From contig JAHCJY010000005.1 of assembly GCA_026126065.1 (NCBI GenBank), forward strand, positions 125,058-189,057: 64,000 bases of DNA, given 5' to 3'. This DNA comes from Bauldia sp. (GTDB lineage Bacteria > Pseudomonadota > Alphaproteobacteria > Rhizobiales > Kaistiaceae). Below are positions 1-17,950 of this stretch, one piece after another. The first letter of the stretch is position 1. Each line of letters opens with the position of its first letter. Position numbers and translations under genes: made by a program. The notes below the pieces were generated by a model, which saw nothing but the letters and a program-made list of their open reading frames with translations, was not told the DNA's origin and did no database searches.

Positions 1-396
1 GCGCTCCTGGTCGTCGAGGTGCTCGCTGTGGCCCAGGCAGATCGTCAGGAAAGCGCGCTCGACCAGCTTGAACGGCTGCATGCCGCCGGCGGTCGCGACC
101 TTCACCACGCCACGGGCCTTCTCGTCGAAGGAGTAGCTTCTGGCCTCTCCCCGAAAGACGCTGCGGGGAAACTGGTCGAGAAGGACCACCAGCCCAGTTT
201 GCTGCGATGGGGTTAGGACGGCAACGTCGATCGCAGCACCGTCAGCCTCGGCAAGGGCGGCCGAGAACAGTCCCGCAATCTCGGCATCCCGACCGCCGCC
301 AAACCAGAGGGAGAAGCGATCGTCGTTGAAGGATGCGAAGTCGGGGACGGGGCCAAACCAGAACAGATGCACGTCGTCGAGGATTTGCGGCTGCAT
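1..396 (-). CDS. DUF924 family protein, N-terminal 132 codons (CDS continues past the left window edge)
   Basis: Not in the ORF track because it has no stop in the window. Minus-strand translation from the ATG (complement of 394-396) gives MQPQILDDVHLFWFGPVPDFASFNDDRFSLWFGGGRDAEIAGLFSAAL...VERAFLTICLGHSEHLDDQER. The FWFG...WF.G pattern and the H-SE motif are typical of DUF924. Third-position GC is high. Confidence 0.55.
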   Translation of the reverse strand, partial: MQPQILDDVHLFWFGPVPDFASFNDDRFSLWFGGGRDAEIAGLFSAALAEADGAAIDVAVLTPSQQTGLVVLLDQFPRSVFRGEARSYSFDEKARGVVKVATAGGMQPFKLVERAFLTICLGHSEHLDDQER

Positions 397-503
397 CTCG
401 CTTCTCAGTACCCACTTCGTCGTAGGTATCGAACGCCGTCCCGGCACCGCATGCAAGGGTATATTCGTCTGGCTCCTCGCGCTGGATATCGTATCAGGAC
501 CGA

Positions 504-602
504 ATTCCAATGCAGCAGCAATGGACCAGGTCGTGACAATGGGCTGAAAGGGCCCCGCAACTCAGCAGCCCGCGCTTCGCCATCGCCCCGATGATGGACT
601 GG
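504..602 (+). repeat. Orphan dusA 5' fragment (attL-like copy)
   Basis: attccaatgcagcag...cccgcgcttcgccAtcgccccgatgatggactgg aligns with 13302-13410. This copy has a 12-nt deletion and a 1-nt insertion (GGGCTG vs GGCTG) that creates an early stop (MDQVVTMG*). Similarity stops abruptly after 602. Confidence 0.75.
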
Positions 603-779
603 CGCGAAAACATCGTGATCGCCGGCATACATGGCTCGTCTGCTGCACTGGCGCTGCAGAGCGGCTCACTGGAGCGCCTCGCGTCACAAGAGAGATCGCG
701 ATCCACGTCCCAGCGCGGGACGCTGGCGGTCTCCGGCTCTGCGTTCGAAGTCGGGAGAACGACTGAGATCCAATGATCT

Positions 780-802
780 CCGCCCCGCCCCGCCCCGCCC
801 CG
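780..802. repeat. Pentanucleotide simple sequence repeat (CGCCC) x4.6
   Basis: Direct reading gives c cgccc cgccc cgccc cgccc cg. The repeat is non-coding and lies about 160 nt upstream of the 964 start codon. Confidence 0.9.
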
Positions 803-963
803 ATTGAACCCTGCGCCTCCGCGCGTTGGCCGTAGGCGACCTGCGCCGCGGGCCAACTCTCGAGATCACCGGCTGTGCTTCTCGGCACAGCATCTCGAAG
901 TCGATCCTGAGAAGGATGCTTCGCCGACCACATGTCGGTGGCCTCCAACAAAGGAAAACAACG

Positions 964-1245
964 ATGACCCTCAAGATCAACAACCTCCTCCGCGTCTCGC
1001 TCATTGGCGCGCTCGCGGCCGCAACGGTCCCCGCGATCCCGACGATGGCCCTCGCGGCCGGCGATGCGGATTACTGCAATAGCGCCTTCTTTGCCGGCTA
1101 TGTTCGCGCCGCCGACGTCGGCGAGAAGTGCAATGGCACTCGCACGCACTTCGATGACCGAGATTGCGCCGCCGACGATCCGTTCGTGTTCGTCATCGCC
1201 GAACGCCGCAACGGCGTGGTCTATGTCGACTGCGTCTCTCACTAG
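964..1245 (+). CDS. Small secreted 4-Cys protein (island paralog P1)
   Basis: ATG at 964 is preceded by AAAGGAAAA. The Sec-type signal is MTLKINNLLRVSLIGALAAATVPAIPTMALAAG. The mature part has 4 Cys. It is a paralog of the protein at 11389-11721. Confidence 0.6.
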   Translation: MTLKINNLLRVSLIGALAAATVPAIPTMALAAGDADYCNSAFFAGYVRAADVGEKCNGTRTHFDDRDCAADDPFVFVIAERRNGVVYVDCVSH

Positions 1246-1326
1246 CTATGGAGTTACACTAGGTTGTCCATCCGGTCCTGACCGTGGAAGCTGGAGTTGC
1301 GAAGCTTCAGAACCTCGGAGGACCGG

Positions 1327-1498
1327 ATGAACATCTACAAGAATGCCCGTGACGCCGATTGGTCGAGAGCGTCTGGTTGTGGCTGTGCGGAGCGGGCAGA
1401 GCCCGGAGGCCGCCGCACCAGGCAAATTGGGGCAACGTCACGCTGATCCTTGTCGCGGATCGCGGATTCCATCATCGGTCGACCGCTACAAGCGCTGA
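1327..1498 (+). pseudogene. IS481-family transposase N-terminal (HTH) remnant, frameshifted and truncated
   Basis: GGAGG sits 5 nt before the ATG at 1327, which opens MNIYKNAR. Reading the adjacent frame from about 1351 (a 1-nt shift relative to the ATG frame) gives VTPIGRERLVVAVRSGQSPEAAA...VDRYKR*. This matches the canonical IS481 N-terminus (MN.HKNARLTP.GRE.lV..v..Gq.p.aAA....W..R). No DDE catalytic domain follows. Confidence 0.5.
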
Positions 1499-1565
1499 GT
1501 GCAATTCGCCGTGCTCCGCCACTGGCCCCGCCGTGATGCTGCGTTAGTAATCCACATCGCGCTGT

Positions 1566-4500
1566 CTATAGATTAACCTCATCCCGGACCTCGAATACTA
1601 CAGTGGGCGTGCTCACGTTTTTCAACTGGACTGGGCCAAGGCATTTCAGGTCCATTCCCTCTGGCAGCGTCTCCTTCGTCTGTTCTCCGACGAGAATCGC
1701 TCCGTCGCGTGCGTGGGCGGCGATCCGCGCCGCGACATTCACCGACGACCCAATTGCTGTGAACAGACGGCGGTCGACATCTTTCGCAGCGATCTTGTAG
1801 CAGCCGACGATCGCTTGGCCGGTGTTGACACCGATGTTGACAGTCACATTGCACGAATGGCGGCTGACGAGGTTCAGACGCCGCGTGGCGCGACGCAGCA
1901 AAAGCGCGGTCTTGACGGCGCGATGCGGGCTTTCGTCGCCATCGAAGATCGCGAGAAGGGAATCCCCTTCGATCTGACTTATCTCGCCTCCCATTTTGAG
2001 AATATCGTCGTAGAAGGCGGAGAAGTACTCCTCGACGAGACGCTTGGAGTTCGCCGCGCCGATGGACTCGACGATCAGCGTGTATCCTTGGATGTCGAGG
2101 AAGAGCGACGACACCACCGTCTCCCGCTGCTCCTCGATCTCCCTACCGCCGCCGTTGAGAAAGTCGTTGGCGTAGCGCTTGGTGGCAAAGGTTTCGAGCT
2201 GCTGCCGCAGATGCTCCATGAGTTGAAGCTTCTTTGCGGCGCGCCGGAGGGCGACCTGGTGACTGTCGAGGCTCTGGCCGGACCGCTGCCGCAGCAGGAC
2301 GTTGCCCAGCTCCGAAGTCGCCACGCGGAGGTCCCGCACGAGATCGTCAGACAGGTGTCCCGCCCTGGCGCTGGTGAGAAAGAGCAAGGCCCGGCCCCCT
2401 TCGCTGACGTGGCGGGCGCCGCAGTAGACCATCCCCCCGTGGGTAGCGTCGTCGCGGGCAAAGCGGGGATCGGCGGCTGTATCTGCGATCATCAGGTCGT
2501 GACCGGTGCGGCGGACGAGATCGATGATGTCGCCTCGGAGACCGCTGTGTTGTTGAATCCGAGACTCCTGGCCCACGCACATCGCCGATATCCCGTCGCG
2601 TGATTGCGCGATCACGGCCGGCTGCCCGTCGTCCACCCAGACGAGCCAGGCGGCGTCGGCGCCGGTCTCGTCTGCCACGGCCCGCAACAGCACCGGAATG
2701 CGCTCGGCCAGTTCGACGTCCTTGCCCAATGCGTGCTCGATGACGCCGGTCCGGTTGAGTTCCACGACTTTGCCAGGGGGCTCCAAGGACGCCGGCGCCT
2801 CCGCCAGGTCCGCCAGGGCCCGCTTCACCAGGGCGGTTGCCTTCCATGCCGCGAACCGCTTTCGTGCTTCTTCCAGATAGGCCGATCGTGACCGGGAGGA
2901 GCCCAGCTTCCTGGAGGCGTCGGCGGCGCGGAAGGCTGCGAGGCCGGCGATGTTCGGCATGCCGGCGCGATCGGCCGCTTCAATGGCGGCTTCGAACGCG
3001 CTTAGGGCGGTGCCATGGCCCCTGATCGCCATCGTCTCGGCCTCGAGAAGGAGGCGGTGTGGCTCGAAGTTTGCGGGGACCATGGCCGCGAGCCGGCGAA
3101 ACTTCTTGAGGCCCCGGTTGAGGAGCTTCAGCCTCCGGCCAAGCATGGCCGCCGCGATCGCGCGATAGAAGGCATAGTCCGCCAGCATGATCTGGCCCGG
3201 CATGGCATCGAGGTACCGGCTGGCCCGATCGCCGTAGCCAAGTGCCGCACCGGGTGACCCGAACAGGCATTCGAGTTGCAGCCTCATCACAAGATAGTAG
3301 CCGACGGCGGTGAGGTTGTTGCTCGCGAGCATCCGCTCGACGAATGCGTCGCCGGCCGCCGCCGATTTCATGATCGGCTCGCCGGGCTCGGCTTCGTCGC
3401 GCAGGAGACGGACTGCGCCTGACCACACGGCGTAGCTGCCGATCACAAATGGATCGCGGCTTTGGTTGATGAAATGAAGGCGCTTCCGGAAGTCCGATTG
3501 CAGAACCTCCAGGTCCTTCCCGCGAAAGAAGTTGAGGAACCACTGGAGCAGTATCCCATAGTAGGCGTACTGACGGTCACCGACCGCCACCGCGCCGTCG
3601 TATCCAATGCGGAGGAAGTTCAGGCACTCCGATATTGGACGCTGCCAGAGACCCACGAACGCCCCGTAGATGATCTGCACCTTCGGACGCGTCACCGGAT
3701 CCGGAAGCCGTTCGGCGAGCGCAAGTGCGAGCCGGCCGAGCGCGTCACCGCGGACGAAGGCGCCGAGCGCCACATGGCCGAGGCCGAACAGAACGTAGCC
3801 GGAAGGCGAGAGGGGCGAGTTGCCGGCGCGTGCCGAGATGGCGACGATCTTGAGGCCAGCGAGAATCGTGAGGTTGGGATTCACGAAGTAGGCCGCCGGG
3901 CTGACGCTGGTCAGTATCGTCAGCACCTTGAATAGGCGCTCGTCCTCCATCGTACGAAGCTCGACGTAGGATTCGACCGAGTGTCGTCGCATGAGCCAGC
4001 GGACGCGCAGGAATTCCACGATGATCCCTGCCCTCCGGATGGTCTTGTTGAACCGCCATCCGAGCTTGCCGAGCGCGACCACGGCCGCGTCGACCGCGTC
4101 GTTGTTCCTCTGCGCCGCGGTCTCCAGCAGGATCTTGGTGTTGTAGACGTCGGCGGCCTCGAGATCGCTATCGACATGGGTCATCAGGAGGTCGAACAGC
4201 CGCTGCGCGTCGTCGAACCGGCCGGAGAGATAAGCGGCGCCGAACGTCTCGAGGTGCAGCGCCACGCAAAGACGCCTGTCGGTCTTCCAGCTTTCCGGCG
4301 TGAGGAGCCTGGTTCCGGCGCTGAGTTTCAGGAACGCTTCCTCGAACGCCAGGGTCTCGCGAGCCCTGCGGCCGGCCGCGAGATTCAGTTCCGCCAGCTT
4401 TGTCCTCTGGCGGTCCGAGAGGTCTTCGCTGATTCGGTTTATGTTGTTGACGACGACGAACAGGCTGCGCGACCCGATATCATCGAGCGTGTCGAGAAGG

Positions 4501-6497
4501 GCATGACCGATGTCGCGGCGGAGCTGCTGCGCCTCGGTGGGATCGATGAGGGACGTGGCTGCGCTCTGGACGCGATCGTGGGTGAACTGGATGCTGTCGA
4601 GGTCCTCCTCGCCGGGTCGCATGGCGGCCTGGATCGCACCTATGGCGAACGCCTCGTCGAGCGCCGCGCGGAACGCATCCGACGGCATGGCGGAAGCATG
4701 GGCAAGGAGCCGGCGCGGGAACGATGCCCCGAGGAAGGCTGCCGTGGCCAGCAGCCTGCGGCAGTCGTCGCTGAGTTCGGAAAGGCGTCGGGCCACGATG
4801 TTCGCGACGTCGGCGCCGGTATCCTGCGCCTCGATCGCGCCCAGGTCGCAACGCCATGAGCCAGTCGGAAAATCGTACCAGACTAGCCGCCGCGACAGGA
4901 GTGCCTCTACCACCTGGTGGACGTAGAAGGGGTTGCCGCCGGTCCTGTCGTGAAGGTAGGCGGCGAGTCCGGCCCGCTCTTCCTCCGACCTGCCTACTTG
5001 GTCGATGAGCTTTGAGACGCTGCCCGATCCGAGGCCGGCGAGGCCGACGTGACTGACAGGATGATGCCGCCCGAGCGCCGCTTCCGCCCGGCCGAGGGCG
5101 GCGAGATGCGCCGGATCGTTGTCACGAAAGGCTCCGACGAACAGGATTCCGGCGAGCGATGGATCTCCGAACAGCATCTCCACCAGGTCGAGCGTCGCCA
5201 GGTCGGCCCACTGCATGTCATCAAGGAAGATGCACAGCGGTCGATTCCGGTTGGCGAAGCCGCGAAGGAGACCGACAACGGCATCCTTGAACCGGTTGGT
5301 CTGCTGTTCGGGTCCGATTTCCGGAGGAAGGCCCTGGTTGCCCAGCAGCGTCCCGAACTCGGGCGCGAGCGCGCAGATCACACCCTCAAGGCCCCCAAGT
5401 TCCGCCCGCAGCCTGTCGACCGTGCGATGGCGGGACTGGGTCGGCTGGTTCGCCGCCCACCGCGCCAGGCTGCCCAGCGACTTCGTGAGGGAGGACAGCG
5501 GCTCTTCCATGGCAAACTGGTCGGACTTGCCGCCAACGAAGACGCCGCGGCCTTCGACCACGCTGCGTTCGAACTCCTGGACGAGGCGCGTCTTGCCGAC
5601 CCCGGGCGGCCCGGTAACGAAGGCTGTGGCAGCACTCCGGCGCGCGCTGCGCAGCGCCCGGCGCAGCGTGGCCAGTTCGTTGTCGCGTCCAATCAGGGTG
5701 GCGCCGAACGCGATCGCCGGCGCGCCGTCCTGCTGGCCGAGGACCTGGATGCTAGGCGGTCCACCCAACTCGAAATGCCGCAGGCATTGATGAAGGTCGG
5801 CAGCCACGCCCCTGGCCGTCGCGTAACGTCGCCGGCCCGGGAGGTCGGCGAGCCGATTGATCACCTCGGAAACAGTCTCGAGGCCCGCTCCGCCCGCCTC
5901 TGAAAGGTCGTTCGGATCAACCGGCAGGGAGACCCGGTTTCGCCCGGTGCAGGCCCAGAACAGGAATGCGCCGAGCCCGAACAGATCGGTGGAACGGCTC
6001 GGCACCCCCATCGGGCGAACTCGGAACTCGGGGGCCAGAAACTCCGCATCATCGAGGGCGGCGAACTCCTCCTGCTCGTCGGCCCGCAGAGGCGCGCCTT
6101 CCCGGAAGGGGTGCAACGGGAGAAGGGCAACCCTGTCGAGCGTGCGGTTGGCCCATACCGTGCCGGGTCCGATCCGTCCGTAGACCCAACCGTGGTCGTG
6201 AAGGACGGCGAGCCGCCGTGCGAGCGCGGCCGTCAGCCTCAGGGCATGGCCGACCGTCGTCTGGATCTGGGAGCCGAGCTCCAGCGCCGGACGGAACTCG
6301 TCGCTGCGGATGCTCCAGGGCTGTGTCGCATGCCTTGCGAACGGCACGAGCGTGTCGGCGAGATTACGCTGATCCGGAATCCACGGCCGGCTGCCCGGAG
6401 TCCACGTGGAGACGGCAATACTGTCGACCACGGACGGATCGACGCCCATATGTTCATCGGGCTCCTGTACCGACGCACTGGGTATTGAGGTACCCAT
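1566..6497 (-). CDS. Multidomain signalling protein: truncated pseudokinase, AAA_16/STAND ATPase, helical/TPR-like region, GAF, class III nucleotidyl cyclase
   Basis: 1643-aa ORF. Kinase C-lobe remnants are LHDHGWVYGRIGPGTVW (HRD lost), FLAPEF and STDLFGLGAFLFWACTG. Walker A is GPPGVGKT (aa 296-302) and Walker B is CIFLDDMQWAD (aa 422-431). The GAF domain spans about aa 1252-1405. The cyclase domain spans aa 1461-1643 with FLDIQGYT, IEGDSLLAIF and GSSVNVAARI. Confidence 0.85.
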   Translation of the reverse strand: MGTSIPSASVQEPDEHMGVDPSVVDSIAVSTWTPGSRPWIPDQRNLADTLVPFARHATQPWSIRSDEFRPALELGSQIQTTVGHALRLTAALARRLAVLHDHGWVYGRIGPGTVWANRTLDRVALLPLHPFREGAPLRADEQEEFAALDDAEFLAPEFRVRPMGVPSRSTDLFGLGAFLFWACTGRNRVSLPVDPNDLSEAGGAGLETVSEVINRLADLPGRRRYATARGVAADLHQCLRHFELGGPPSIQVLGQQDGAPAIAFGATLIGRDNELATLRRALRSARRSAATAFVTGPPGVGKTRLVQEFERSVVEGRGVFVGGKSDQFAMEEPLSSLTKSLGSLARWAANQPTQSRHRTVDRLRAELGGLEGVICALAPEFGTLLGNQGLPPEIGPEQQTNRFKDAVVGLLRGFANRNRPLCIFLDDMQWADLATLDLVEMLFGDPSLAGILFVGAFRDNDPAHLAALGRAEAALGRHHPVSHVGLAGLGSGSVSKLIDQVGRSEEERAGLAAYLHDRTGGNPFYVHQVVEALLSRRLVWYDFPTGSWRCDLGAIEAQDTGADVANIVARRLSELSDDCRRLLATAAFLGASFPRRLLAHASAMPSDAFRAALDEAFAIGAIQAAMRPGEEDLDSIQFTHDRVQSAATSLIDPTEAQQLRRDIGHALLDTLDDIGSRSLFVVVNNINRISEDLSDRQRTKLAELNLAAGRRARETLAFEEAFLKLSAGTRLLTPESWKTDRRLCVALHLETFGAAYLSGRFDDAQRLFDLLMTHVDSDLEAADVYNTKILLETAAQRNNDAVDAAVVALGKLGWRFNKTIRRAGIIVEFLRVRWLMRRHSVESYVELRTMEDERLFKVLTILTSVSPAAYFVNPNLTILAGLKIVAISARAGNSPLSPSGYVLFGLGHVALGAFVRGDALGRLALALAERLPDPVTRPKVQIIYGAFVGLWQRPISECLNFLRIGYDGAVAVGDRQYAYYGILLQWFLNFFRGKDLEVLQSDFRKRLHFINQSRDPFVIGSYAVWSGAVRLLRDEAEPGEPIMKSAAAGDAFVERMLASNNLTAVGYYLVMRLQLECLFGSPGAALGYGDRASRYLDAMPGQIMLADYAFYRAIAAAMLGRRLKLLNRGLKKFRRLAAMVPANFEPHRLLLEAETMAIRGHGTALSAFEAAIEAADRAGMPNIAGLAAFRAADASRKLGSSRSRSAYLEEARKRFAAWKATALVKRALADLAEAPASLEPPGKVVELNRTGVIEHALGKDVELAERIPVLLRAVADETGADAAWLVWVDDGQPAVIAQSRDGISAMCVGQESRIQQHSGLRGDIIDLVRRTGHDLMIADTAADPRFARDDATHGGMVYCGARHVSEGGRALLFLTSARAGHLSDDLVRDLRVATSELGNVLLRQRSGQSLDSHQVALRRAAKKLQLMEHLRQQLETFATKRYANDFLNGGGREIEEQRETVVSSLFLDIQGYTLIVESIGAANSKRLVEEYFSAFYDDILKMGGEISQIEGDSLLAIFDGDESPHRAVKTALLLRRATRRLNLVSRHSCNVTVNIGVNTGQAIVGCYKIAAKDVDRRLFTAIGSSVNVAARIAAHARDGAILVGEQTKETLPEGMDLKCLGPVQLKNVSTPTVVFEVRDEVNL

Positions 6498-6524
6498 CCA
6501 AGCCCTGCAACCAGCCGATCGAGC

Positions 6525-7388
6525 TCAAGGTCCAGGTTTTCTGGCACGAAGATGCGCGTAGAACCAGCCACCGGCCTGCAACGCGCGATACTGGAGCCGG
6601 GAGGACATGAGGTTCTCCCGCTGGACCTCGGTTCTAAGACCCAAAACACTGAGTAGGTTGTGCGCCGGCAGTCCGGCAAAAGTAAGGTTGTGTAGCAGAT
6701 ACAGTGATGGCTCGACATACTCAGTGACATCCATCACTGCGACGTCGTCGAGGCCCGCGGCTGCGGCGTGGGCGAGATGAGACACGCCGGAGTCGAGCCC
6801 CGGTATAGCCCAGCCGCGCAGCCACTCGGCGTTTGTCGATGTGTCGAGTTCGTCGGGCCACCGGTCCGGCAGCATGTACTCGGCCATCGCCAGTCTGCCG
6901 CCCGGCTTCAGAACGCGTGCGGCCTCGCGATAGAAGGCAGCTTTGTCAGGCGCATGGACCACGCTCTCGATCGCGATGACGGCATCGACGGATGCGGTCC
7001 TGAGCGGCATGGCGGTGTAGTCGCCAATGACGAAGCGAGCCCTCCGGCTGAGCCCGCGTTCGGCGGCCGATTGCCTCGCCAGGACCATCTGGCGGAAGTT
7101 GACGTTGAGGCCGACGACGCGTGCCTGACGTTCGCTTGCCAGCCACAGCGACGACCCGCCGAGACCGCAGCCGGCGTCCACCACCAGGCTCCCCTCGCTG
7201 ATCGCCGCCAGGTCCGCAATGCGCCGGCTCGTTGCGATCAATGCTTCCGAGTGACTACGGGCGCCGTCGCCGAAATAGCCGAAGTGCACCGCGGAGACGG
7301 ACTTGTTCGTCCAAGCCAGCCAATAGTCACCCACGGTACCGTTGTAGTACCGATTGACCGAGCCAAATTCGGGATCTTCGATCGTCAA
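6525..7388 (-). CDS. Class I SAM-dependent methyltransferase (sterol-C24 / gamma-tocopherol / sarcosine-dimethylglycine MT-like subfamily)
   Basis: 287 aa. N-terminal YYNGTVGDYW...VHFGYF is followed by motif I VVDAGCGLGGSS and post-I/II motifs (VVGLNV, VDAVIAIESVVH, LKPGGRL). The start is TTG at 7388, 9 nt after the upstream stop. Confidence 0.75.
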   Translation of the reverse strand: MTIEDPEFGSVNRYYNGTVGDYWLAWTNKSVSAVHFGYFGDGARSHSEALIATSRRIADLAAISEGSLVVDAGCGLGGSSLWLASERQARVVGLNVNFRQMVLARQSAAERGLSRRARFVIGDYTAMPLRTASVDAVIAIESVVHAPDKAAFYREAARVLKPGGRLAMAEYMLPDRWPDELDTSTNAEWLRGWAIPGLDSGVSHLAHAAAAGLDDVAVMDVTEYVEPSLYLLHNLTFAGLPAHNLLSVLGLRTEVQRENLMSSRLQYRALQAGGWFYAHLRARKPGP

Positions 7389-7397
7389 GGTGCTGCG

Positions 7398-9329
7398 CTA
7401 TTCTTTCTCGTCGACGCCAAGGTCCTGATCCACGTGCTTCCGCCGCGGCGGAAGCACGCGTTCCTCCCGCAGGAACCGGGCGACCTTCCTCCTGATGCGG
7501 TGGGCGATCGCGAAGACCGCCTCGGCGGGGTTGGCCATTCCACCAGATGCTGCCCACTCGTCGATGGCCTGCGGGAGATCGAAGACGAGTGATTCGTCGT
7601 GGGTGAAGACGCGAACGCGTTCCGGAGACGTCCCCACCCTGGCGAGGATCGCGTTGACGGCCCGGCGGGCCGCCTCGTTCGCGCCCTCCATGCAGGCGAG
7701 ATCGGTGTCGGTGCTGACATAGTCGGCGGCGAGGAACATGTTCTTGAGCCCGACATCGGCCTCGGGACGACTCTTCGCCGAGTTGACGGTATTGATGAAC
7801 AGCGGCTCGGCGTTGTCGAGCTTGATGGTAATCGCGGAAGCCGGAGGCATCGATTCTCCCAGGAACACGTCCTCCTTCGGAAGCTCGACCTTCAGGTCCT
7901 CGAATCTCTGGACGGCGATCGTGCTGCCGACGAAGCCACTGGCCACCAACGCCCGTAGTGCCCTCCAATCCACCTTGACGAACCAGTTCAGACTGGAATC
8001 GATCTCGTAGTCGACGATGTTGTCGGAGGCGAGAGCCGGGATGCCGGGCTGATGCCGCTGTAGCTGTGCGAGCACCTCCGCGACGAGATTGGAGGGCATC
8101 GCCTTCCGGGCCCGTCGTGGAGCATGATCGGAATCGCCGGGATGAATGAAGAAGTCCGAGATGATGACCGACACCACCTCCTTCACGCCGCTGGCGGCGT
8201 TGTATGTAGTCACAGGCCGGCGCCAGTAACGCGTGGGTGCGATCGATGTGAGCGCCCAGGCCGAGTTTATGTGGGCGACGTGACCCGGGAGAAGACCGAC
8301 CCGGCTCCGCGAATAGAACGAAATGCCAGCCATCCAGTTCACGCCGAGCGTGGCCTTATTCATCTTTGCCAAGGCCGGAAAACGCTCGATGCGATTGCGC
8401 GCAGACCAGGGGCCAACCAGCTTGCGCGCTACCTCGAGAGGCACGCACAGGAGGTAGTAGTCGGCCTTGATGGGCTCCTGCTCGTCGGGCGCGTCTTCCG
8501 GTGCATCGCCGAGACGCCACTTAACGCCGACGATCTCCTTGCCTCTCAACGTCAGCGCGACGGCCTGGACGTTCGGGCGGAACTTGACACCGATGGCGTC
8601 GCCGTCGGCCGTTTCCAGAAAAGCCTTCCACGGATCGATCCAGATCTCGCTGGTCGGTCCGGCGAGAATCCAGTCCATTCCCTTGCCGGACCAGAAATCG
8701 TCGAACATCCGGGCGAGGATGGTGACCACGGTCTTCGTGCTCGATGACTGCGCATCCATCGCGACGAAGTTTTGGGTAAGGCCGTCGACGATGGCGGTGC
8801 GGTAGGCCAGCGACATCCTGTCGGCCTCCATGAAGTCCCACCACGATTTGAGGTCGAGCTCCTCCCAACGCCGAAGCGCCGACGTCGAAAGCGCAATACC
8901 GATCTTGCGGGCCGCGAAGGCTGCTTCGCCCGGCCCAAGGCCAAGATCTGGATTGCTGAAGCCCGTCTGCAGGGCGCGGAACAATTCGTTCAGGGTCTTG
9001 GGCCGGCGGGTCGGAAAGCGAAACGGTTCCTTCTTGAGCCGCGACAGCGCGCCTTCCGGTACCTCGACAAGATCCTTCGCGACGCTTCCGTTGAGGCCCG
9101 GAATGCGCGCCATGGTGTCCCGGACATTCCGATAGAAGCTCGGGAAGAAGCGGAAGCCGTGCTCCGCCGGGAGGCCTTTGATCTTCTCCTTGTCGCTGCA
9201 ATAGCTCCGTGCCTTGCCGCCGAAGATCGTCCGTCGCTCGTAGACAGTGACGTCGAAGCCCCGCTCCCTGAGTTCGTGGGCAGCCGTCAGTCCGGCGATG
9301 CCACCACCAATGATCGCTACCGTCGTCAC
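7398..9329 (-). CDS. FAD-dependent oxidoreductase, amine-oxidase/phytoene-desaturase superfamily (paralog 2, about 643 aa)
   Basis: The GTG start at 9329 is preceded by AGGGGGAAGG. The dinucleotide-binding motif is VAIIGGGIAGLTAAHEL, the GG motif is FGGKARS, and the C-terminal FAD motif is FLAADYVSTDTDLACMEGANEAARRAVNAIL. The longer 718-aa ORF-track version would overlap the upstream gene. Confidence 0.75.
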   Translation of the reverse strand: MTTVAIIGGGIAGLTAAHELRERGFDVTVYERRTIFGGKARSYCSDKEKIKGLPAEHGFRFFPSFYRNVRDTMARIPGLNGSVAKDLVEVPEGALSRLKKEPFRFPTRRPKTLNELFRALQTGFSNPDLGLGPGEAAFAARKIGIALSTSALRRWEELDLKSWWDFMEADRMSLAYRTAIVDGLTQNFVAMDAQSSSTKTVVTILARMFDDFWSGKGMDWILAGPTSEIWIDPWKAFLETADGDAIGVKFRPNVQAVALTLRGKEIVGVKWRLGDAPEDAPDEQEPIKADYYLLCVPLEVARKLVGPWSARNRIERFPALAKMNKATLGVNWMAGISFYSRSRVGLLPGHVAHINSAWALTSIAPTRYWRRPVTTYNAASGVKEVVSVIISDFFIHPGDSDHAPRRARKAMPSNLVAEVLAQLQRHQPGIPALASDNIVDYEIDSSLNWFVKVDWRALRALVASGFVGSTIAVQRFEDLKVELPKEDVFLGESMPPASAITIKLDNAEPLFINTVNSAKSRPEADVGLKNMFLAADYVSTDTDLACMEGANEAARRAVNAILARVGTSPERVRVFTHDESLVFDLPQAIDEWAASGGMANPAEAVFAIAHRIRRKVARFLREERVLPPRRKHVDQDLGVDEKE

Positions 9330-9363
9330 GCCTTCCCCCTTTCCCGCCGGAGCGGACGGGCAG

Positions 9364-11190
9364 CTACGGCCCGGGTTTCCTGCGGTTGTTTCGCCGCGCG
9401 GCGAAGCGCCGGACGACGCCGGCGGGTATGCTTCCCGGCGATGGGAAGTTGCGCTGGAACAGCCACCGGTCGATCGACCGCGCGGGTGCGAAAACCGACG
9501 GCTCCGGGTAGGACCAGACTGAACAGGGGCGACGGTCCGGAGCCGCGAGGGCAAGGATGGCGTTCACCGCCCTCCGGCCCGCCTCGTTGGCGCCCTCCAT
9601 GGTCGCGAGGTCGGCGTTCGTCCGCACATAGTCGGCCGCCAGGAACGCGTTCTTGATGCCGACGTTCGTGCGTGGCCTGAGCTTCCAGGAGCCCACAGTG
9701 TTGATGAACAGCGGCGCGGCGTTGCCGGCTATCCGGACCAGGCGCGGATCGTCGTCGAGAAACTGCTCGACGAAGGCGGCGGGCGACACGAGTTGGCCAA
9801 GCAGTTCGGCCCTGCCGGGCGTGAAGTCCAGATCGGGATCGAGCTGGAAGTCGATCAGCGAATCGTCGAGATTTGGCCGCCCGGCAATATGGTCCTGAAG
9901 CTGCCTGAGAGCTTCAACCTTTATTTCCTCGGCGCTGTCCGCGTGCTTTGCCGCGTCATCTCCGCCGGCGTGGAAATTCGAGATGATGACCGACAGCACC
10001 TCACGAACGGCGCTATCCTTGAGAGCATACTTCTTCAGACTTGCCTGCCAGTGGCGGGTTTGGGCTATCGACGTGAGGGCCCACGACGAATCGAGAAACG
10101 CCGCGTGGTTGGCTAGAGTCGGTACCTCTTCACGAAGATAAAGGATCAGCCCAGACATCCAGCTTACCTTCAGTCCGATCTCGGGATCAATACAGTTATC
10201 GAGAACCGGCTTTAGTGCGGGATGCTGGCCAACAATCTCCTGGTTCTTCTCGAGAACCCCTGCCATCACTTCTACCGGAAGCGCGAACACGAAGTAGTCG
10301 GCTTCGATGAGACCACCTCCGGGCTCCTGCATGGGCATCTCGCAGTCGCGCTCGGACACGATCCAGTCGACGCTGACGACGCTTTTCGTGACCGGATCAT
10401 AGTTGATGGTCCCTGCAGCACACCCGCAGTTGAACAACACCTTCCGACGGCCGCGCTCGGGTTCGTCCCGGCTCAAGTAGTCGACCCACGGCTGGATCCA
10501 GACATCGCTCGTCGGGCCGTTGAGTATCCGGTCCATGCCGTCCTCGGACCAGAAGTCACGAAGAAGACGGGCGAGGATATTGATAACGGTCTTGGTGCTC
10601 GAGTGATCGGCGTCCATCGCCACGAAATTCTGCGTAAGGCCGTCGACGATGACGGCCCGGTAGGCCGGCGACATCATGTCGGCCTCCATGTATTTCGCCC
10701 AGGGCATGTCCTCGAGTTCATGCAGACGGCGTTCGTCGCTCATGGACAGGGCCGCCACCAACTTCGTCGTCGCAAAGGCGATCTCAGTTGCAGTCAGTCC
10801 GAGACCCGGATTGCTGAACATCTTGCGGATCATCCCGAGCGCTTCGCTGATGCCGCGAGGACTGCGGGTCGGGACGCGGAAGGGCGAACTGCCGATGCGG
10901 GAAAGGATGGCCTCTGGCACGGGGACCAGGTCAGCCAGCACGCTCCCGTGGCGGCCCGGAATCCGTGACAGAGTATCGTTCAGGTGTTGGTAGAAGCTCG
11001 GGAAGAACCGGAAGCCGTGCTCGGCTGGAAGGCCCGCCACGGTGGCCTTTTCGGAGGGGAAGCTTCGCGCCTTGCCACCTAAGACACGGCGCTTCTCCCA
11101 GACGGTGACCTTGAATCCGCGCTCCCGCAACTCGTGGGCCGCGGTCAGGCCGGCGACACCACCGCCGATAACGGCAACAGTCTTGGTCAT
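9364..11190 (-). CDS. FAD-dependent oxidoreductase, amine-oxidase/phytoene-desaturase superfamily (paralog 1, 608 aa)
   Basis: MTKTVAVIGGGVAGLTAAHELRERGF...LGGKARS...EHGFRFFPSFY...FLAADYVRTNADLATMEGANEAGRRAVNAIL. It is collinear with the protein at 7398-9329, with 55/76 identical residues over the N-terminal block counted by hand. ATG at 11190 follows a G10 tract, and an in-frame upstream ATG at 11244 is also possible. Confidence 0.75.
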   Translation of the reverse strand: MTKTVAVIGGGVAGLTAAHELRERGFKVTVWEKRRVLGGKARSFPSEKATVAGLPAEHGFRFFPSFYQHLNDTLSRIPGRHGSVLADLVPVPEAILSRIGSSPFRVPTRSPRGISEALGMIRKMFSNPGLGLTATEIAFATTKLVAALSMSDERRLHELEDMPWAKYMEADMMSPAYRAVIVDGLTQNFVAMDADHSSTKTVINILARLLRDFWSEDGMDRILNGPTSDVWIQPWVDYLSRDEPERGRRKVLFNCGCAAGTINYDPVTKSVVSVDWIVSERDCEMPMQEPGGGLIEADYFVFALPVEVMAGVLEKNQEIVGQHPALKPVLDNCIDPEIGLKVSWMSGLILYLREEVPTLANHAAFLDSSWALTSIAQTRHWQASLKKYALKDSAVREVLSVIISNFHAGGDDAAKHADSAEEIKVEALRQLQDHIAGRPNLDDSLIDFQLDPDLDFTPGRAELLGQLVSPAAFVEQFLDDDPRLVRIAGNAAPLFINTVGSWKLRPRTNVGIKNAFLAADYVRTNADLATMEGANEAGRRAVNAILALAAPDRRPCSVWSYPEPSVFAPARSIDRWLFQRNFPSPGSIPAGVVRRFAARRNNRRKPGP

Positions 11191-11193
11191 GCT

Positions 11194-11203
11194 CCCCCCC
11201 CCC
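11194..11203 (-). repeat. Homopolymeric G10 tract (C10 on the plus strand) at the 5' end of the first oxidoreductase gene
   Basis: The minus strand reads CCC GGGGGGGGGG AGC ATG. The tract lies 3 nt upstream of ATG 11190 and in frame inside the alternative ORF starting at 11244. Confidence 0.9.
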
Positions 11204-11388
11204 GGGTCGCTGCTAGCATTGGATGCAGGACGACATCGTGTCAACTGAACCGCGCATTACGCGTCTGCTGAACGTGAAGTCGCCATGTTTTTGCCTGCAG
11301 AGGGAACACCTTGAAAGACGAGCACCGCGAGTGCGCTATCGCGATGCTTCTTGCCATCTGGGGCGGTACTTACTGCTATCCAGGGTAG

Positions 11389-11721
11389 CTACGCGCACCC
11401 GAAGTAGAACACCCCGCCCCGCAGTTCCGCGCGGGCCCGGCGGTGGGAGACGCCGTCCGCGCCGCAGTCGGTCCGCTGCGCGGTCGCACCAGTGCGGGTC
11501 CAGCAGATCCATTCGAACTCGCCGCTGTGATCCACACGTACGTAGCCGTCGAAGAATGTATCCCGGCCGGGCGCCAGGACGTTGCCCTGGAACTCGACGC
11601 TTTCGCAGCGCTCGAAGGTCTGGCCGGCGGCGAGCGCGGTGGCAGGAACGCCCGGGCCGGCCGCGAGAGCGAGGGCGCCGATCATCGCAACGCGAAGAAG
11701 GGGATTGCTGGTCAACCTCAT
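11389..11721 (-). CDS. Small secreted 4-Cys protein (island paralog P2)
   Basis: 110 aa. The signal peptide MRLTSNPLLRVAMIGALALAAGPGVPATALAAG shares 17/26 positions with P1 over LLRV..IGALA...ALAAG. The mature part shares the C(N/E)S..F.G and DC.AD...G.V.Y..C patterns. Confidence 0.6.
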   Translation of the reverse strand: MRLTSNPLLRVAMIGALALAAGPGVPATALAAGQTFERCESVEFQGNVLAPGRDTFFDGYVRVDHSGEFEWICWTRTGATAQRTDCGADGVSHRRARAELRGGVFYFGCA

Positions 11722-11734
11722 TGTCGTGTGCCTT

Positions 11735-11762
11735 TGTGAGTGGTCACCGATCTCATGATCGG
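11735..11762. promoter_or_regulatory. Two adjacent inverted repeats in the divergent P2/crp-like intergenic region (candidate operator)
   Basis: TGTGAgtggTCAC lies at 11735-11747 (a CRP-like half-site, but with a 4-nt spacer). CCGATCtcatGATCGG lies at 11747-11762 (perfect 6-bp arms). Confidence 0.25.
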
Positions 11763-11882
11763 AGTTCCATCCTCCACAGGCGGCCTGCGCTATGATGTGC
11801 TGCGCGGCACGGCCGGATACATGGGGAGAACGACGGGACTGTCGCGATCGGGGGCAAGGGGCCGCGGGCAAGGGGGGACATC

Positions 11883-12566
11883 TTGGAAGCAAGTCTTGAG
11901 GTTGCTTCGCGCCTACTGGGAAGCTGCGTCCTGTTCCGCGATCTCGAAGTGGCCGATATCGCCGAACTCGCCGGGCAGGCGTCGCTGCGTCGCTACTCCG
12001 CCGGAGAGACAATCTTCCACATGGGCGATCCCGGCGAGAGCATGATGGGCATCGTGGCGGGGACAGTGCGCGTGGCACGAATTACGGCCCAGGGCGATGA
12101 ACTCGTCCTTGCGGATTTCGGGGCTGGCGACGTGTTCGGCGAGATCGCACTCCTTGACGGCCGGGGGCGTTCCGCAACCGCGAGTGCGGTCACCAACTGC
12201 ACGCTGGTCTACCTCTCCCGGACGGAGTTTCTGACATTCCTCGGGAGCCGGCCTGACGTTGCCGCATCGATCATCAGGCTCCTGTGCGGCAAGCTCCGAA
12301 CGGCGGATGACCGCTCGTCGGATCTCATCTTCCTCAGCCTCGGCGGTCGTTTGGCGAAGGCCCTTCTGGCGCGTGCGGTAACCTCCCCCGCCCACCCCGG
12401 AGGGCGGGTCTCCCTGAGCCAGTCGGAGCTCGCGACGATGATCGGCGCCACACGATCCAACGTGAACCGGCAGCTCAAGGCGTGGGAGCGCGCCGGCATC
12501 GTGGCGATGACCCGTGGCTGGATCGTGGTTCTGGACCGCGGCGCCCTGGCGGCGGAGGTCGACTAA
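11883..12566 (+). CDS. Crp/Fnr family transcriptional regulator (cNMP-binding domain plus C-terminal HTH)
   Basis: 227 aa. The phosphate-binding cassette is FGEIALLDGRGRSATASA (aa 85-100). The HTH is LSQSELATMIGATRSNVNRQLKAWERAGIV. The TTG start is preceded by AAGGGGGGA. Confidence 0.85.
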   Translation: MEASLEVASRLLGSCVLFRDLEVADIAELAGQASLRRYSAGETIFHMGDPGESMMGIVAGTVRVARITAQGDELVLADFGAGDVFGEIALLDGRGRSATASAVTNCTLVYLSRTEFLTFLGSRPDVAASIIRLLCGKLRTADDRSSDLIFLSLGGRLAKALLARAVTSPAHPGGRVSLSQSELATMIGATRSNVNRQLKAWERAGIVAMTRGWIVVLDRGALAAEVD

Positions 12567-12706
12567 CCGTCCGGTCAGCCAGACCATCGGCCGCACCAGA
12601 TAGTTCGTCGCGACGGCTCCGGCGCGCGCGTCGCCGAGCACGGTCCCTTCCGCCTCGTCCTTGAGGCAACGCCGGTCAACCCGCGCGCCAGAGATTGTCG
12701 GACCAG

Positions 12707-13003
12707 CTAGTAGACGTTGTAGGCAACGGTCGGATAGCCGAGGCCGCCCGGGCGGGTGTTCGAGACGCAGTTGCGCTCGGCGTCGGTGCGGCCGACGCGC
12801 GGCGCGAAGGTCAGATAGACGCCGAGGCTGTCGGGCGAACTCGGCCCCGGCCGTTCGCCCTCGAGCATCATGGCAAGACGGGCGCCGAGGGCATTCGCCG
12901 ATTTCGTCGGAGATGGCGACGCGGCAAGCGAAGCGTGCCTGCTATTGCAGGTCGGAAGGCCACAGGCATTGACGATCGTGAGGATAAACGTGCTGTGCTT
13001 CAA
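12707..13003 (-). CDS. Putative small lipoprotein (possible third, diverged member of the island Cys-protein family)
   Basis: From TTG at 13003 the translation is [14 protein letters not shown]|GLPTCNS...DAERNCVSN...VAYNVY, with a lipobox-like VNAC. Third-position GC is very high over the last ~60 codons. CNS and D.ERNC echo P1/P2 motifs. The ORF-track entry 12707-13240 fuses it in frame to the integrase stub. Confidence 0.35.
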
Positions 13004-13089
13004 TCGGCGAGTGGTTTCACCTTCACCACTTGGCGGGACGGTCCGAATCGGTTCGGTCCGACCCTCTACGGTATTGTCTACCGCGGCGT

Positions 13090-13240
13090 CTGGCCTCGCG
13101 CCGCGGTCGAGCTTGTGCCCTTGCCCGCGCGCCCAGGCGACCGCATCTTTGTGGTCTGCAAAGGTCCTGAATACCTTTGGCTGTGTCGAACGCCGGACTT
13201 GGGCCTGCCAACTCGATCTGCGGCGAACGATCGGCGCCAC
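13090..13240 (-). pseudogene. Tyrosine integrase N-terminal stub (about 50 codons)
   Basis: [47 protein letters not shown] matches the common integrase N-terminal pattern (W/Y-RAQVRRKG...SKTF.T...A..WAR..E..mdRG). Third-position GC is lower than in neighbouring genes. No core-binding or catalytic domain follows in any frame. Confidence 0.5.
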
Positions 13241-13301
13241 TGGGCTTCCTCTGCAGCAGTTTCGCAGCAGTGAGAGCCGCGAAAGACGGTATCACGACTG
13301 T

Positions 13302-13410
13302 ATTCCAATGCAGCAGAACTGCAGCAGCAATGGACCAAGCCGCGAAAATGGCTGAAAAACCCGCGCAATTCCGACGCCCGCGCTTCGCCGTCGCCCCGAT
13401 GATGGACTGG
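13302..13410 (+). repeat. dusA 5' segment, functional copy (attR-like)
   Basis: Direct repeat of 504-602 (see that entry). It contains the dusA start codon and the codons for RFAVAPMMDW. Confidence 0.75.
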
Positions 13411-14355
13411 ACGGACCGGCATTGCCGCGTCTTCCATCGCCGGCTGACGCGCAGTGCACTCCTCTACACCGAGATGGTGACGGCGGAGGCGATCCTCCGT
13501 GGCGACCGCGAGCGGCTCCTCGGCTTCAGCCCCGAGGAGCAGCCGGTGGCGCTCCAGCTCGGCGGCTCGGACCCGGTGCGGCTCGCCGAGGCGGCGCGGA
13601 TCGGGGAGGGGTTTGGCTATGCCGAGATCAATCTCAATGTCGGCTGCCCGTCGGATCGCGTGAAGTCGGGGGATTTCGGCGCCTGCCTGATGCTGCGGCC
13701 GGAACTCGTCGGTGACTGCGTGGCCGCGATGAAGTCCGCCGTGACCATCCCGGTGACGGTGAAATGCCGGCTTGGCGTGGACGAGCAGGACACCGAGACC
13801 GCGCTCGACGCGCTGGCCGATGCGGTGCTTGCCTCCGGCGCCGATGGTATCTGGGTGCACGCGCGGAAGGCCTGGCTGCAAGGCCTCAGCCCCAAGGAAA
13901 ACCGCACCGTCCCGCCGCTCGACTACGGCCGCGTCCGCCGCCTCAAGGAGCGGCTGCCGCACGTATTCGTCGGAATCAATGGCGGTATCCCCGACATCGA
14001 CGCCGCGGAAGCGGAGCTTGCCCATGTCGACGGCGTCATGCTCGGCCGTGCCGCGTATGAGCGGCCCGGCGTGCTTGCGGAGGTCGACCGCCGCCTCTTC
14101 GGCGCGACGGAGCCTGACCCCGATCCGGTCGCCGTCGCGCGCGCGATGATCCCGTATGTCGACGCCCTCGTGGCTGTCGGACGGCCAGCCAACCGGGCGA
14201 CCCGGCACATGCTCGGCCTCTTCCACGGCCGGCCGGGGGCGCGGGCGTGGCGCCGGGTGATGACGCTCGGCCCGACACGACCCGGAGCGGCCGGCGCCGT
14301 GATCGAGGACGCACTGGCGGCGATGGCCCGTGAGGGCGAGCGCCTCGCCGCCTGA
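13348..14355 (+). CDS. dusA: tRNA-dihydrouridine(20/20a) synthase DusA
   Basis: MAEKPAQFRRPRFAVAPMMDWTDRHCRVFHRRLT...EINLNVGCPSDRV...VTVKCRLG are hallmark DusA motifs. An alternative in-frame ATG lies at 13330. Confidence 0.9.
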   Translation: MAEKPAQFRRPRFAVAPMMDWTDRHCRVFHRRLTRSALLYTEMVTAEAILRGDRERLLGFSPEEQPVALQLGGSDPVRLAEAARIGEGFGYAEINLNVGCPSDRVKSGDFGACLMLRPELVGDCVAAMKSAVTIPVTVKCRLGVDEQDTETALDALADAVLASGADGIWVHARKAWLQGLSPKENRTVPPLDYGRVRRLKERLPHVFVGINGGIPDIDAAEAELAHVDGVMLGRAAYERPGVLAEVDRRLFGATEPDPDPVAVARAMIPYVDALVAVGRPANRATRHMLGLFHGRPGARAWRRVMTLGPTRPGAAGAVIEDALAAMAREGERLAA

Positions 14356-14358
14356 GGC

Positions 14359-15018
14359 CTAGTTCGCGCGCTTGGTCGGCCTCGCCGGGCCGGTGTCGAC
14401 CGGGTAGTCGACGATCCGCACTAGGTCGATCTCGCCATTGTAGGTCGGGTCGACCTCGAACGTGACGAGCACGAACTGGCCGTTCCGGAACTGCCAGGTG
14501 CCGATGCTCGACGCATCGCAGAGGCCGCGCCAGCACGCATTCTCGGTCACCGTCCGCGTCGCGAGGTCGAAGGTCGCGTTGACCAGCTGGTTCTCGGTGG
14601 TCATCCCGGTGATCGGGATGGCGTTGACCGTGATGCAGTCGAGGTTCTCGAAGCCGCCCATGCGGCAGTCGGGTTCGAAGGTCGGGATCGCGAAGGCGAC
14701 CGGCTGGACGCCGTTGTACTCGTCCCACGACAGGAACATGTCGAACCGGTTGTAGGCGCCCGAGCCGCAGTAGAACTTGTACAGACGGTATTCGACATCC
14801 GTCGCGCCCTCGAAATCCTGGCGATAGGTGAGGTCGAATATCTCCGGGACTCCGATCGGCTCGGGGCCGCCGAAGCACGCTGTCTCCGAGAGCACGGCGA
14901 AAGCGGCGATGACCTGGTCGTCGATCGCGTCGGCCCGCACGGGGCCGGTCGCGAGGAGGCCGGCGAGTGCGGCTGTCCACGCCGCGGTGCTGAATCTGCG
15001 CAAACGTTCGGCGATCAT
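14359..15018 (-). CDS. Secreted hypothetical protein (DUF1176-like, tentative)
   Basis: ATG at 15018 is preceded by GGAGGAGG. The signal peptide is MIAERLRRFSTAAWTAALAGLLATGPVRA. The protein has several Cys and the motif CGSGAYN. Confidence 0.45.
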   Translation of the reverse strand: MIAERLRRFSTAAWTAALAGLLATGPVRADAIDDQVIAAFAVLSETACFGGPEPIGVPEIFDLTYRQDFEGATDVEYRLYKFYCGSGAYNRFDMFLSWDEYNGVQPVAFAIPTFEPDCRMGGFENLDCITVNAIPITGMTTENQLVNATFDLATRTVTENACWRGLCDASSIGTWQFRNGQFVLVTFEVDPTYNGEIDLVRIVDYPVDTGPARPTKRAN

Positions 15019-15082
15019 CGGAGCCTCCTCCAGTGCAACCACGCGCCAGTGATAGCCGGGCGACCGTCCGGCCGCCAAGCGG

Positions 15083-15811: not shown

Positions 15812-15923
15812 CCCACCGATCCGGCGTCACCCGTACGTTAGATGGGTATCACGATCACCGAACGGAATGGTGGCAGATGGCGGCGAAAGCAGGGCGTCAG
15901 CGTTTGGTTGCGTTGGTGTTGGA

Positions 15924-15953
15924 TTCCCCTCGCCCCGTTCGGGGAGAGGGGAA
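15924..15953. repeat. GGGGAGAGGGGAA-type hairpin repeat (REP-like)
   Basis: ttcccctcgcccc gttc ggggagaggggaa forms a 13-bp stem with one mismatch. The same arm sequence recurs at 54108-54139. Confidence 0.6.
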
Positions 15954-16000
15954 GCGACCAGACCTGGCGAGGCCAAGTCTCGATCAAGAAGCGCCTTGCG

Positions 16001-17827: not shown

Positions 17828-17950
17828 CGCTCCGTATCGAGTCGCCGGCGTTCTGCCGCCGGGACTGCCGATAGCAGGGAGAGCGTGCCGGCCGGTTAAC
17901 CACGCCCGGCGGAACGAAGGCAGCGTAAACAGCGGCTTAAGGCAAACGCT

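Follow-up and report, generated by a model that had tools for sequence, protein, structure and literature searches.

Islands specific for dusA share a recognisable layout: the integrase lies beside the 5' end of dusA, the island supplies a new 5' end for the gene, the old 5' end is displaced, and imperfect direct repeats mark the insertion (Farrugia 2015, PMC4482086). Their attachment (att) sites follow a 21-bp consensus, with sites of 26–28 bp; the family is known from Alphaproteobacteria, and its islands can measure as little as 4.8 kb (Farrugia 2015, PMC4482086). A PrtN/RdfN-type factor is present at the end opposite to int in 64% of the islands and is needed for excision in Vibrio (Farrugia 2015, PMC4482086; Durand 2021, PMC8409611). 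The integrase of the phage mEp460 was named as a homologue of the DusA-associated integrases (DAI), and relatives of these enzymes use other targets, including a tRNA-Arg gene (Farrugia 2015, PMC4482086).

Here, we describe a locus resembling these islands in a stretch of 64,000 nucleotides from Bauldia sp., a genus of uncultured soil bacteria (assembly GCA_026126065.1, contig JAHCJY010000005.1, positions 125,058 to 189,057). The whole stretch is called the window, and its positions are used throughout. The region 491–13410 is likely a dusA-targeting island in decay, with att-type repeats at its borders. This grading applies to the island itself and not to the number of insertions behind it, which is weighed separately below. 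The island is an immobilised remnant of the known dusA-targeting kind; its integrase is gone and it is fixed at its site. The features on which this reading is built are as follows:

491–602, plus strand: displaced, dead dusA leader of the attL type (ATG at 521, an extra G, stop at 545–547; core-like 34 nt at 569–602)
603–963, no strand: non-coding island end beside attL, with a (CCCCG)n run at ~780–802 and no Pfam match in any open reading frame (ORF)
12707–12898, minus strand: 3' fragment of eutC, the gene for the ethanolamine ammonia-lyase light chain (Pfam EutC, 1e-19, profile positions 156–215 of 235; NCBIfam EutC, 4e-21, positions 166–226 of 261)
13088–13240, minus strand: integrase stub divergent from dusA, keeping only the opening ~51 codons of a tyrosine-recombinase gene (N-terminal profile, E=6e-12; catalytic domain gone)
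13289–13410, plus strand: working dusA leader of the attR type (41 nt of 5' untranslated region (UTR), ATG at 13330, 27 N-terminal codons up to MMDW; core-like 34 nt at 13377–13410)
13330–14355, plus strand: intact dusA, 341 aa, with an extended N-terminus of the element type (Pfam Dus, 3e-79)

The segment comprising the dusA leader and the first codons of the gene is present in two copies in direct orientation, at 491–602 and 13289–13410. The original prediction had proposed this duplication, and the alignment bore it out, with the similarity reaching slightly further to the left than had been noted. The copies are identical at 95 of 111 aligned bases (85.6%) and differ by one 11-nt and one 1-nt indel. 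As had also been predicted, they agree best at their 3' ends, where 33 of the last 34 nt are the same (569–602 versus 13377–13410), and the similarity breaks off directly after ...GATGATGGACTGG. Both copies terminate at ...CCGATGATGGACTGG, the codons for APMMDW. The 41-nt 5' UTR part shows 93% identity and the leader codons 74.5%; the 5' UTR and the core are 93–97% identical between the copies, and the sequence between them has drifted. When the whole window was compared with itself, as had been suggested, here by BLAST, the repeat was recovered (E=2e-21) as one of just three non-self matches at E<1e-6, the other two stemming from paralogous oxidase genes. The leader repeat is far beyond chance.

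The two copies differ in their fate. The ORF of the left copy starts with the ATG at 521, reads MDQVVTMG and ends at the TGA at 545–547 through a single G that the right copy lacks, so that a dead ORF of 9 codons is left. The right copy heads the 341-aa dusA. Both the inactivation by a 1-nt insertion with its stop and the intact gene behind the right copy had been claimed from the start, and both held. The DusA protein of the window had a 100% match that the database lists as Bauldia sp. DusA, and its relatives were 87–90% identical. The same structure was found at 99.3–99.5% identity in an independently assembled sister metagenome-assembled genome (MAG), GCA_026126085.1, and therefore it is not an assembly artefact. 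Comparison loci carry L-numbers below, L082 and L090 being those of this sister MAG. The 11-nt unit TGCAGCAGAAC (~511; ~10110–10120 in L090) is missing in the left copy of the strain studied here, while the sister strain keeps it in its left copy, and the right copies of the two strains have it as well. The 11-nt gap thus arose recently, in this strain alone, by a slippage deletion in a tandem 11-mer, and does not reflect an old divergence of the two copies.

For the stub next to the right copy, a profile was built from eight dusA-adjacent integrases, using their first 53 residues, and run against the window translated in six frames. Its sole match was 13088–13240 (minus strand, E=6e-12), confirming the integrase stub that had been noticed there, and tblastn showed 39% identity between the stub and the L026 integrase. 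A full-length integrase profile detected no more of an integrase, neither in the window nor over 10.4 kb leftward of it in the sister strain. Thus, no functional DAI tyrosine recombinase with the RHRH tetrad and the catalytic Tyr stands beside dusA, but residues ~1–51 only. The stub and the eutC piece lie in one minus-strand ORF of 177 codons (12707–13240), in which ~51 codons are integrase and codons 115–175 encode the C-terminal part of EutC. As the two fragments share a reading frame, they mark a deletion that removed the body of the integrase. Part of this fusion ORF is annotated in the sister MAG as a 54-aa 'EutC' gene; no further eut genes were seen near dusA in the window, in the sister strain or in the relatives' loci read.

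Integrases occupy the same place at other dusA genes. An integrase or an integrase fragment lies immediately upstream of dusA and divergent from it, which is the position of the stub, at 17 of 80 alphaproteobacterial dusA loci among the matches listed. The relatives in this listing have at most 71% DusA identity, and they were used for the integrase statistics, not for the search for empty sites. One of the dusA-adjacent integrases is ~40% identical to that of the phage mEp460, and its best phage match is annotated as a 'shufflon-specific DNA recombinase'; both likenesses point to the DusA-associated integrase family. Together with a layout like that of Farrugia 2015, these occupied loci support the architecture of DusA-specific integrases, to which the locus had been assigned. 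Meanwhile, the outer attL of the 17 integrase-occupied loci was not found inside 10-kb flanks.

Some side observations were made at these loci. Partial integrase fragments lie directly upstream of dusA in two Kaistia loci (L002:489–1043 and L009:9687–9971, both on the minus strand), so that decayed integrase stubs at dusA are not unique to the window. Many integrase-occupied loci (L055, L069, L076, L080, L074, L017 and L068) share a DusA N-terminus of 17 residues, M-x-x-N-Q-x-H-R-F. The same N-terminus was seen at L015, L036 and L072, where tblastn detected no integrase, and these may be scars of lost elements.

The dusA loci of the Bauldia relatives differ from that of the window. In the relatives with 90% DusA identity (L084–L086), the DUF2333 gene is divergent from dusA across 210 bp. 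The relative with 87% identity (L083) has a gene for a 266-aa methyltransferase beside dusA (L083:8975–9775), and the relative with 78% identity (L087) has an MFS gene and a TacA/TacT toxin–antitoxin pair there (L087:7765–9968). None of the loci L083–L087 contained the cargo, DUF924 or an integrase trace. The original prediction had to reckon with relatives always carrying the whole 12.8 kb, and these loci show that they do not. The place just upstream of dusA, where L083 and L087 hold different small inserts, is thus a recurrent insertion point in Bauldia. In every Bauldia relative, the point at which upstream homology is lost coincides with the end of the repeat at the conserved dusA codons. 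It was also seen that L083 and L087 each have a DusA N-terminus of their own.

The extent of the lineage-specific DNA was read from the closest relative, L084. For the sequence left of the window, the sister MAG was used, which was reached through its DUF924 protein. There, the DUF924 gene is followed by genes for an RlaP nucleotidyltransferase, a 287-aa hypothetical protein and a deaminase, and then by the backbone genes for DUF2333, PepN, a PAS kinase and GlnE. The homology to L084 stops ~85 bp past DUF2333 (~3.07 kb left of position 1) and resumes at 13375, and the resumed dusA homology to the island-free relatives starts ~35 nt before the end of the repeat at APMMDW. The lineage-specific block therefore measures ~16.4 kb and includes the DUF924 gene. 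Two features at the left edge of the window belong to it:

1–396, minus strand: 5' part of the DUF924 gene (199 aa), running off the left window edge (Pfam DUF924, 5e-21; GC content at third codon positions (GC3) 0.82); in the lineage-specific block, not in the backbone
397–483, minus strand: the DUF924 gene's own conserved upstream region, alignable to the sequence upstream of DUF924 in L088 and L091, where the neighbouring genes are different

The DNA between the repeats had been described as accessory cargo. This stands in so far as the cargo is absent in the Bauldia relatives, but the accessory block has ~16.4 kb including DUF924 and not 12.8 kb. Accordingly, the empty site that had been expected, with DUF924 directly divergent from an intact dusA, was not found in any relative, whereas empty sites for the larger block were. 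The view that the GC content of the island looks native was not quite right either: GC3 is 0.75–0.82 in the island genes versus 0.83–0.93 in most other genes of the window and ~0.90–0.92 in the backbone. Of the traits of dusA islands, the locus thus shows the insertion into the 5' end, imperfect direct repeats, a replacement 5' end and a cargo that is absent from relatives and has an atypical composition.

The two sister strains were compared over the window positions 1884–18777 against L082 and L090. Synonymous divergence was 0.0064 in the island genes and 0.0415 in the core of the right flank from dusA to DUF87, a 6.5-fold difference (Fisher p=1e-12); overall, the strains differ by 0.24% in the island and by 1.7% from dusA on. 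The last single-nucleotide polymorphism (SNP) of the island is at 13079 and the next SNP at 13446, so that the step spans the right repeat. Judged by these substitutions, the shared history of the island appears to be younger than that of the adjacent core. With moderate weight, we suggest that either the block was exchanged between the lineages after their split or one flank was replaced. It is also conceivable, though unlikely, that the integrase-less block may still spread horizontally as a satellite-like passenger between Bauldia strains, with its att-type ends intact and a helper integrase of a related dusA element acting in trans; this would explain both the 6.5-fold drop at attR and the 93–97% identity of the 5' UTR and the core. 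At the non-coding island end, the stretch 603–820 is hypervariable, the sister strains differing there by ~9 substitutions in 215 nt, and the (CCCCG)n run at ~780–802 is 10 nt shorter in the sister strain.

The origin of the left copy bears on whether one insertion or two took place. According to the simplest reading of the repeats, a single integration occurred into a native DUF924–dusA pair, the left copy is the original 5' end of dusA with its own promoter, and only the 12.8 kb are foreign, with deaminase–RlaP–DUF924 being normal chromosomal DNA that is by chance missing from the relatives sampled. Such a model stays within the same island family and competes with the two-step detail only. 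It fits the scheme given in the literature, where the distal copy represents the 5' end that the host had originally. In addition, no integrase trace was found near the left copy and no third, native dusA 5' remnant near DUF2333, both of which count against two insertions, and a lineage-specific native neighbour is possible as the sequence upstream of dusA varies in all Bauldia relatives. Several findings speak against it, however, and we consider it doubtful. Both leader copies share the 5' UTR (93%) and the extension MDQ..M.AE...Q...PRF, and neither of these occurs in the 120 best DusA homologues. Meanwhile, the closest relative and one outgroup share the N-terminus MTY(R/A)PRF, which is likely the ancestral N-terminus of the clade and is unlike both copies. 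The DUF924 gene lies beside dusA in none of the relatives examined, and its two closest homologues with the context read (74–75% identity) have unrelated neighbourhoods. Moreover, GC3 of DUF924 and its left neighbours is island-like (0.80–0.88 versus 0.90–0.92 in the backbone), and 1–602 shares the low between-strain divergence of the island (P ~0.002 at the core rate).

The boundary between DUF924 and the left copy points the same way. The conserved sequence upstream of DUF924 (~85 nt) ends at ~483 and the similarity of the leader copies begins at 491, which marks ~484–490 as a recombination or deletion joint; under a single integration, it would be a coincidence that the similarity ends at the edge of the DUF924 module. 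Given the shared extension, this joint, the island-like GC3 and the low divergence of 1–602, the left copy is probably not the host's displaced 5' end, as had been supposed, but more likely the leader of an earlier related insertion. Two successive insertions of related elements, forming a composite block of ~16.4 kb between DUF2333 and dusA, are therefore favoured, although we give this two-step model only about an even chance.

Several observations weigh against the island reading as a whole. The repeat, at 112–123 nt, is well beyond the published 21–28 bp of the att sites of the family. No PrtN/RdfN-type excision factor was found, as no ORF of 494–1547 had any Pfam match even at E<=1; lacking this factor, the block cannot move on its own, and circular excision is not expected because the integrase is missing. 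The complete relatives of the island with an intact integrase beside dusA, which the original prediction had recommended looking for, were not found. The nearest full-length relatives of the stub (43–52% identity over ~50 residues) adjoin tRNA-Arg(CCG) genes and not dusA, in a search that needed a shared 8-mer and was thus biased. Over the ~50 residues compared, the stub matches the profile of dusA-adjacent integrases (E=6e-12) and yet is nearer to the tRNA-Arg-adjacent ones. With the catalytic domain lost, the family and the site specificity of the integrase cannot be proven from a stub of 51 codons. As for the strain comparison, the divergence of the core is patchy, with only 2 SNPs in 16501–17500, which is why the exchange or flank replacement was given no more than moderate weight, and the left-flank core of this strain lies outside the window.

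The tRNA-Arg(CCG) integrases in question come from metagenome loci (L093–L096). They show 43–52% identity to the stub over ~50 N-terminal residues and 29–34% full-length identity to the dusA-adjacent integrases, and belong to the same broad clade. They lie downstream of the tRNA gene in the same orientation, whereas the stub of the window is divergent from dusA and has no tRNA gene nearby. Its position and the repeats argue for a dusA-specific enzyme, of which the sequence alone is no proof.

It is very unlikely that no site-specific integration took place at all, that is, that a local segmental duplication or gene conversion produced the repeat, that the DNA between the copies came in by homologous or illegitimate recombination, and that the integrase piece is unrelated debris. 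The length of the repeat, which far exceeds a typical att core, would suit this explanation; the stronger conservation of the leader 5' UTR (93%) than of its codons (74.5%) could reflect conversion patches, and the pattern of between-strain divergence shows that homologous recombination was active at the locus. However, the conserved dusA codons at which the repeat ends are those where dusA-specific elements are described to insert, and the Bauldia relatives lose upstream homology there. The stub has the position, the orientation and the approximate spacing seen at occupied dusA loci, similar stubs stand beside dusA in the two Kaistia loci, and a conversion running from 35 nt of homology into non-homologous DNA is mechanistically awkward.

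Finally, it is highly improbable that the leader was kept twice for its function as a conserved regulatory element, be it a promoter or a structured 5' UTR, as the 93% identity of the 41-nt 5' UTR beside a drifted coding part might suggest, because in the relatives examined dusA has just one 5' region, which is unlike this leader, the left copy drives only the dead ORF of 9 codons, the RNA folds are no stabler than shuffled ones (z = +1.4, −0.9 and −0.8), the leader (ATTCCAATGCAGCAG..CAATGGACCA), scanned for as an exact match, was not detected in viral or metagenome collections, no Rfam family matched the leader in a search of 1–16000, and a sigma-70 promoter and terminator scan of 12600–13450 gave no sigma-70-like promoter for the right copy, so that with the scan, the folding and Rfam all negative the idea of a regulatory RNA was rejected.

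Following the mechanism known for the family, the decayed island could have arisen in the following way. A tyrosine recombinase encoded at the dusA-proximal end would have recombined attP with the dusA stretch encoding ...RFAVAPMMDW. The element presumably brought its own dusA-like leader, comprising the 5' UTR and 27 codons, and the gene would have been rebuilt as the leader at 13289–13410 joined to dusA. The previous leader would have been displaced by 12.8 kb to 491–602, where it decayed through the frameshift, the stop codon and, in this strain, the 11-nt slippage deletion. That a later deletion took the integrase from ~codon 52 on, joining the stub to the 3' end of eutC, is seen in the sequence. 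In the two-step model, which stands at even chances, the deaminase–hypothetical–RlaP–DUF924 segment would be the remains of an earlier element that lost its integrase and its outer end.

The cargo consists of the following genes:

964–1245, plus strand: small Cys-containing protein, 93 aa, with a hydrophobic, signal-peptide-like N-terminus; paralogue of 11389–11721; a gene in the sister strain annotation
1566–6449, minus strand: signalling protein of 1627 aa with an AAA_16 ATPase and a C-terminal class III adenylate/guanylate cyclase domain (Pfam AAA_16, 5e-29; Guanylate_cyc, 6.5e-13; ratio of nonsynonymous to synonymous rates (dN/dS) 0.12 versus L089)
6525–7388, minus strand: S-adenosylmethionine-dependent methyltransferase, 287 aa (Pfam Methyltransf_11, 9e-21; CMAS, 2.5e-12; dN/dS 0.12)
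7398–9329, minus strand: flavin adenine dinucleotide (FAD) amine-oxidase/desaturase-like protein, 643 aa (Pfam Amino_oxidase, 3e-17; dN/dS 0.17); tandem paralogue of 9364–11190
9364–11190, minus strand: FAD amine-oxidase/desaturase-like protein, 608 aa (Pfam Amino_oxidase, 1e-17; dN/dS 0.21)
11389–11721, minus strand: small Cys-containing protein, 110 aa, with a hydrophobic, signal-peptide-like N-terminus; paralogue of 964–1245; a gene call in the sister strain and in L089 (dN/dS 0.23)
11883–12566, plus strand: Crp/Fnr-type cyclic-nucleotide-binding transcription regulator, 227 aa (Pfam cNMP_binding, 8e-25; HTH_Crp_2, 4e-16); identical in the sister strain

The cargo is under purifying selection. 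Its dN/dS of 0.12–0.23 was calculated versus L089, a relative that is 85.5% identical and has the same gene order, and the genes are therefore maintained. The cyclase protein has few close homologues, just a 100% entry whose cluster includes the sister-strain copy and one relative with 93% identity, all others being at most 31% identical. The paralogy of the two oxidase genes was seen as the repeats D1/D2, with 67–75% nucleotide identity in blocks, and the oxidase pair evolves faster than the rest of the cluster (75–79% amino acid identity to L089 versus 90–91% for the cyclase protein and the methyltransferase). The two small Cys-containing paralogues are 40% identical (BLASTP, E=1e-14); they have no family matches and bracket the cyclase–methyltransferase–oxidase operon in inverted orientation. 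NCBIfam provided no equivalog-level name for any cargo protein. A defence system was considered and not called, since the PADLOC resemblance is at the domain level only (the cyclase domain resembles PycC and the cNMP-binding domain the Pycsar effectors). Two further matches were noted. ARAGORN reported an 85-nt tRNA-Trp at 17646–17730 (plus strand), which lies inside the DUF87 coding region of the opposite strand and is probably a false positive, and a weak Rfam match to gntR-DTE at 7586–7722 (plus strand) inside an oxidase gene (29 bits versus a gathering threshold of 63.6, E=0.03) was taken as chance.

The locus documents, in Bauldia, the end of life of a dusA element: it has lost its recombinase by deletion but not its ends, its cargo has become domesticated, and dusA runs permanently on a start supplied by the element. 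The island explains the odd extended DusA N-terminus and the 54-aa 'EutC' call, and it also accounts for the 280-aa 'DUF924' call of the sister MAG. The known mechanism of dusA elements is unchanged by this case.

By analogy, the locus would resemble IMEVchUSA3 and the SGI1-like dusA-specific elements of Vibrio (Durand 2021, PMC8409611) in that dusA receives a new promoter and an altered N-terminus and is kept expressed, with int at one end. Those elements, in contrast, have rdfN, mobilisation genes and AcaCD-responsive promoters and are mobilised by IncC plasmids, and none of these modules is present here. In comparison with tandem accretion and decay at one hotspot, two foreign-looking segments lie side by side at one att site with a hybrid att-like copy between them, the recombinase genes are lost, and small inserts of other kinds are found there in further Bauldia relatives (a methyltransferase; MFS plus TacAT); the first insertion here is inferred only, as it left no integrase remnant and no outer attL.

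The closest counterparts are the DAI islands and prophages, such as D1279779_RGP05 of Acinetobacter baumannii and Prophage 03 of Pseudomonas protegens Pf-5. The Bauldia island differs from them in its 51 integrase codons, in having no PrtN-like gene, in a repeat of 112–123 nt instead of 21–28 bp, in a displaced leader that looks derived from an element and not native, and in that no excision is expected. It is like them in the insertion into the 5' end of dusA and in the imperfect direct repeats at its ends. As in the islands of Farrugia 2015, dusA has a replacement 5' end, the former 5' end is displaced, an integrase, here a remnant, stands beside the rebuilt gene, and the cargo, which is highly variable among those islands, is absent from relatives.

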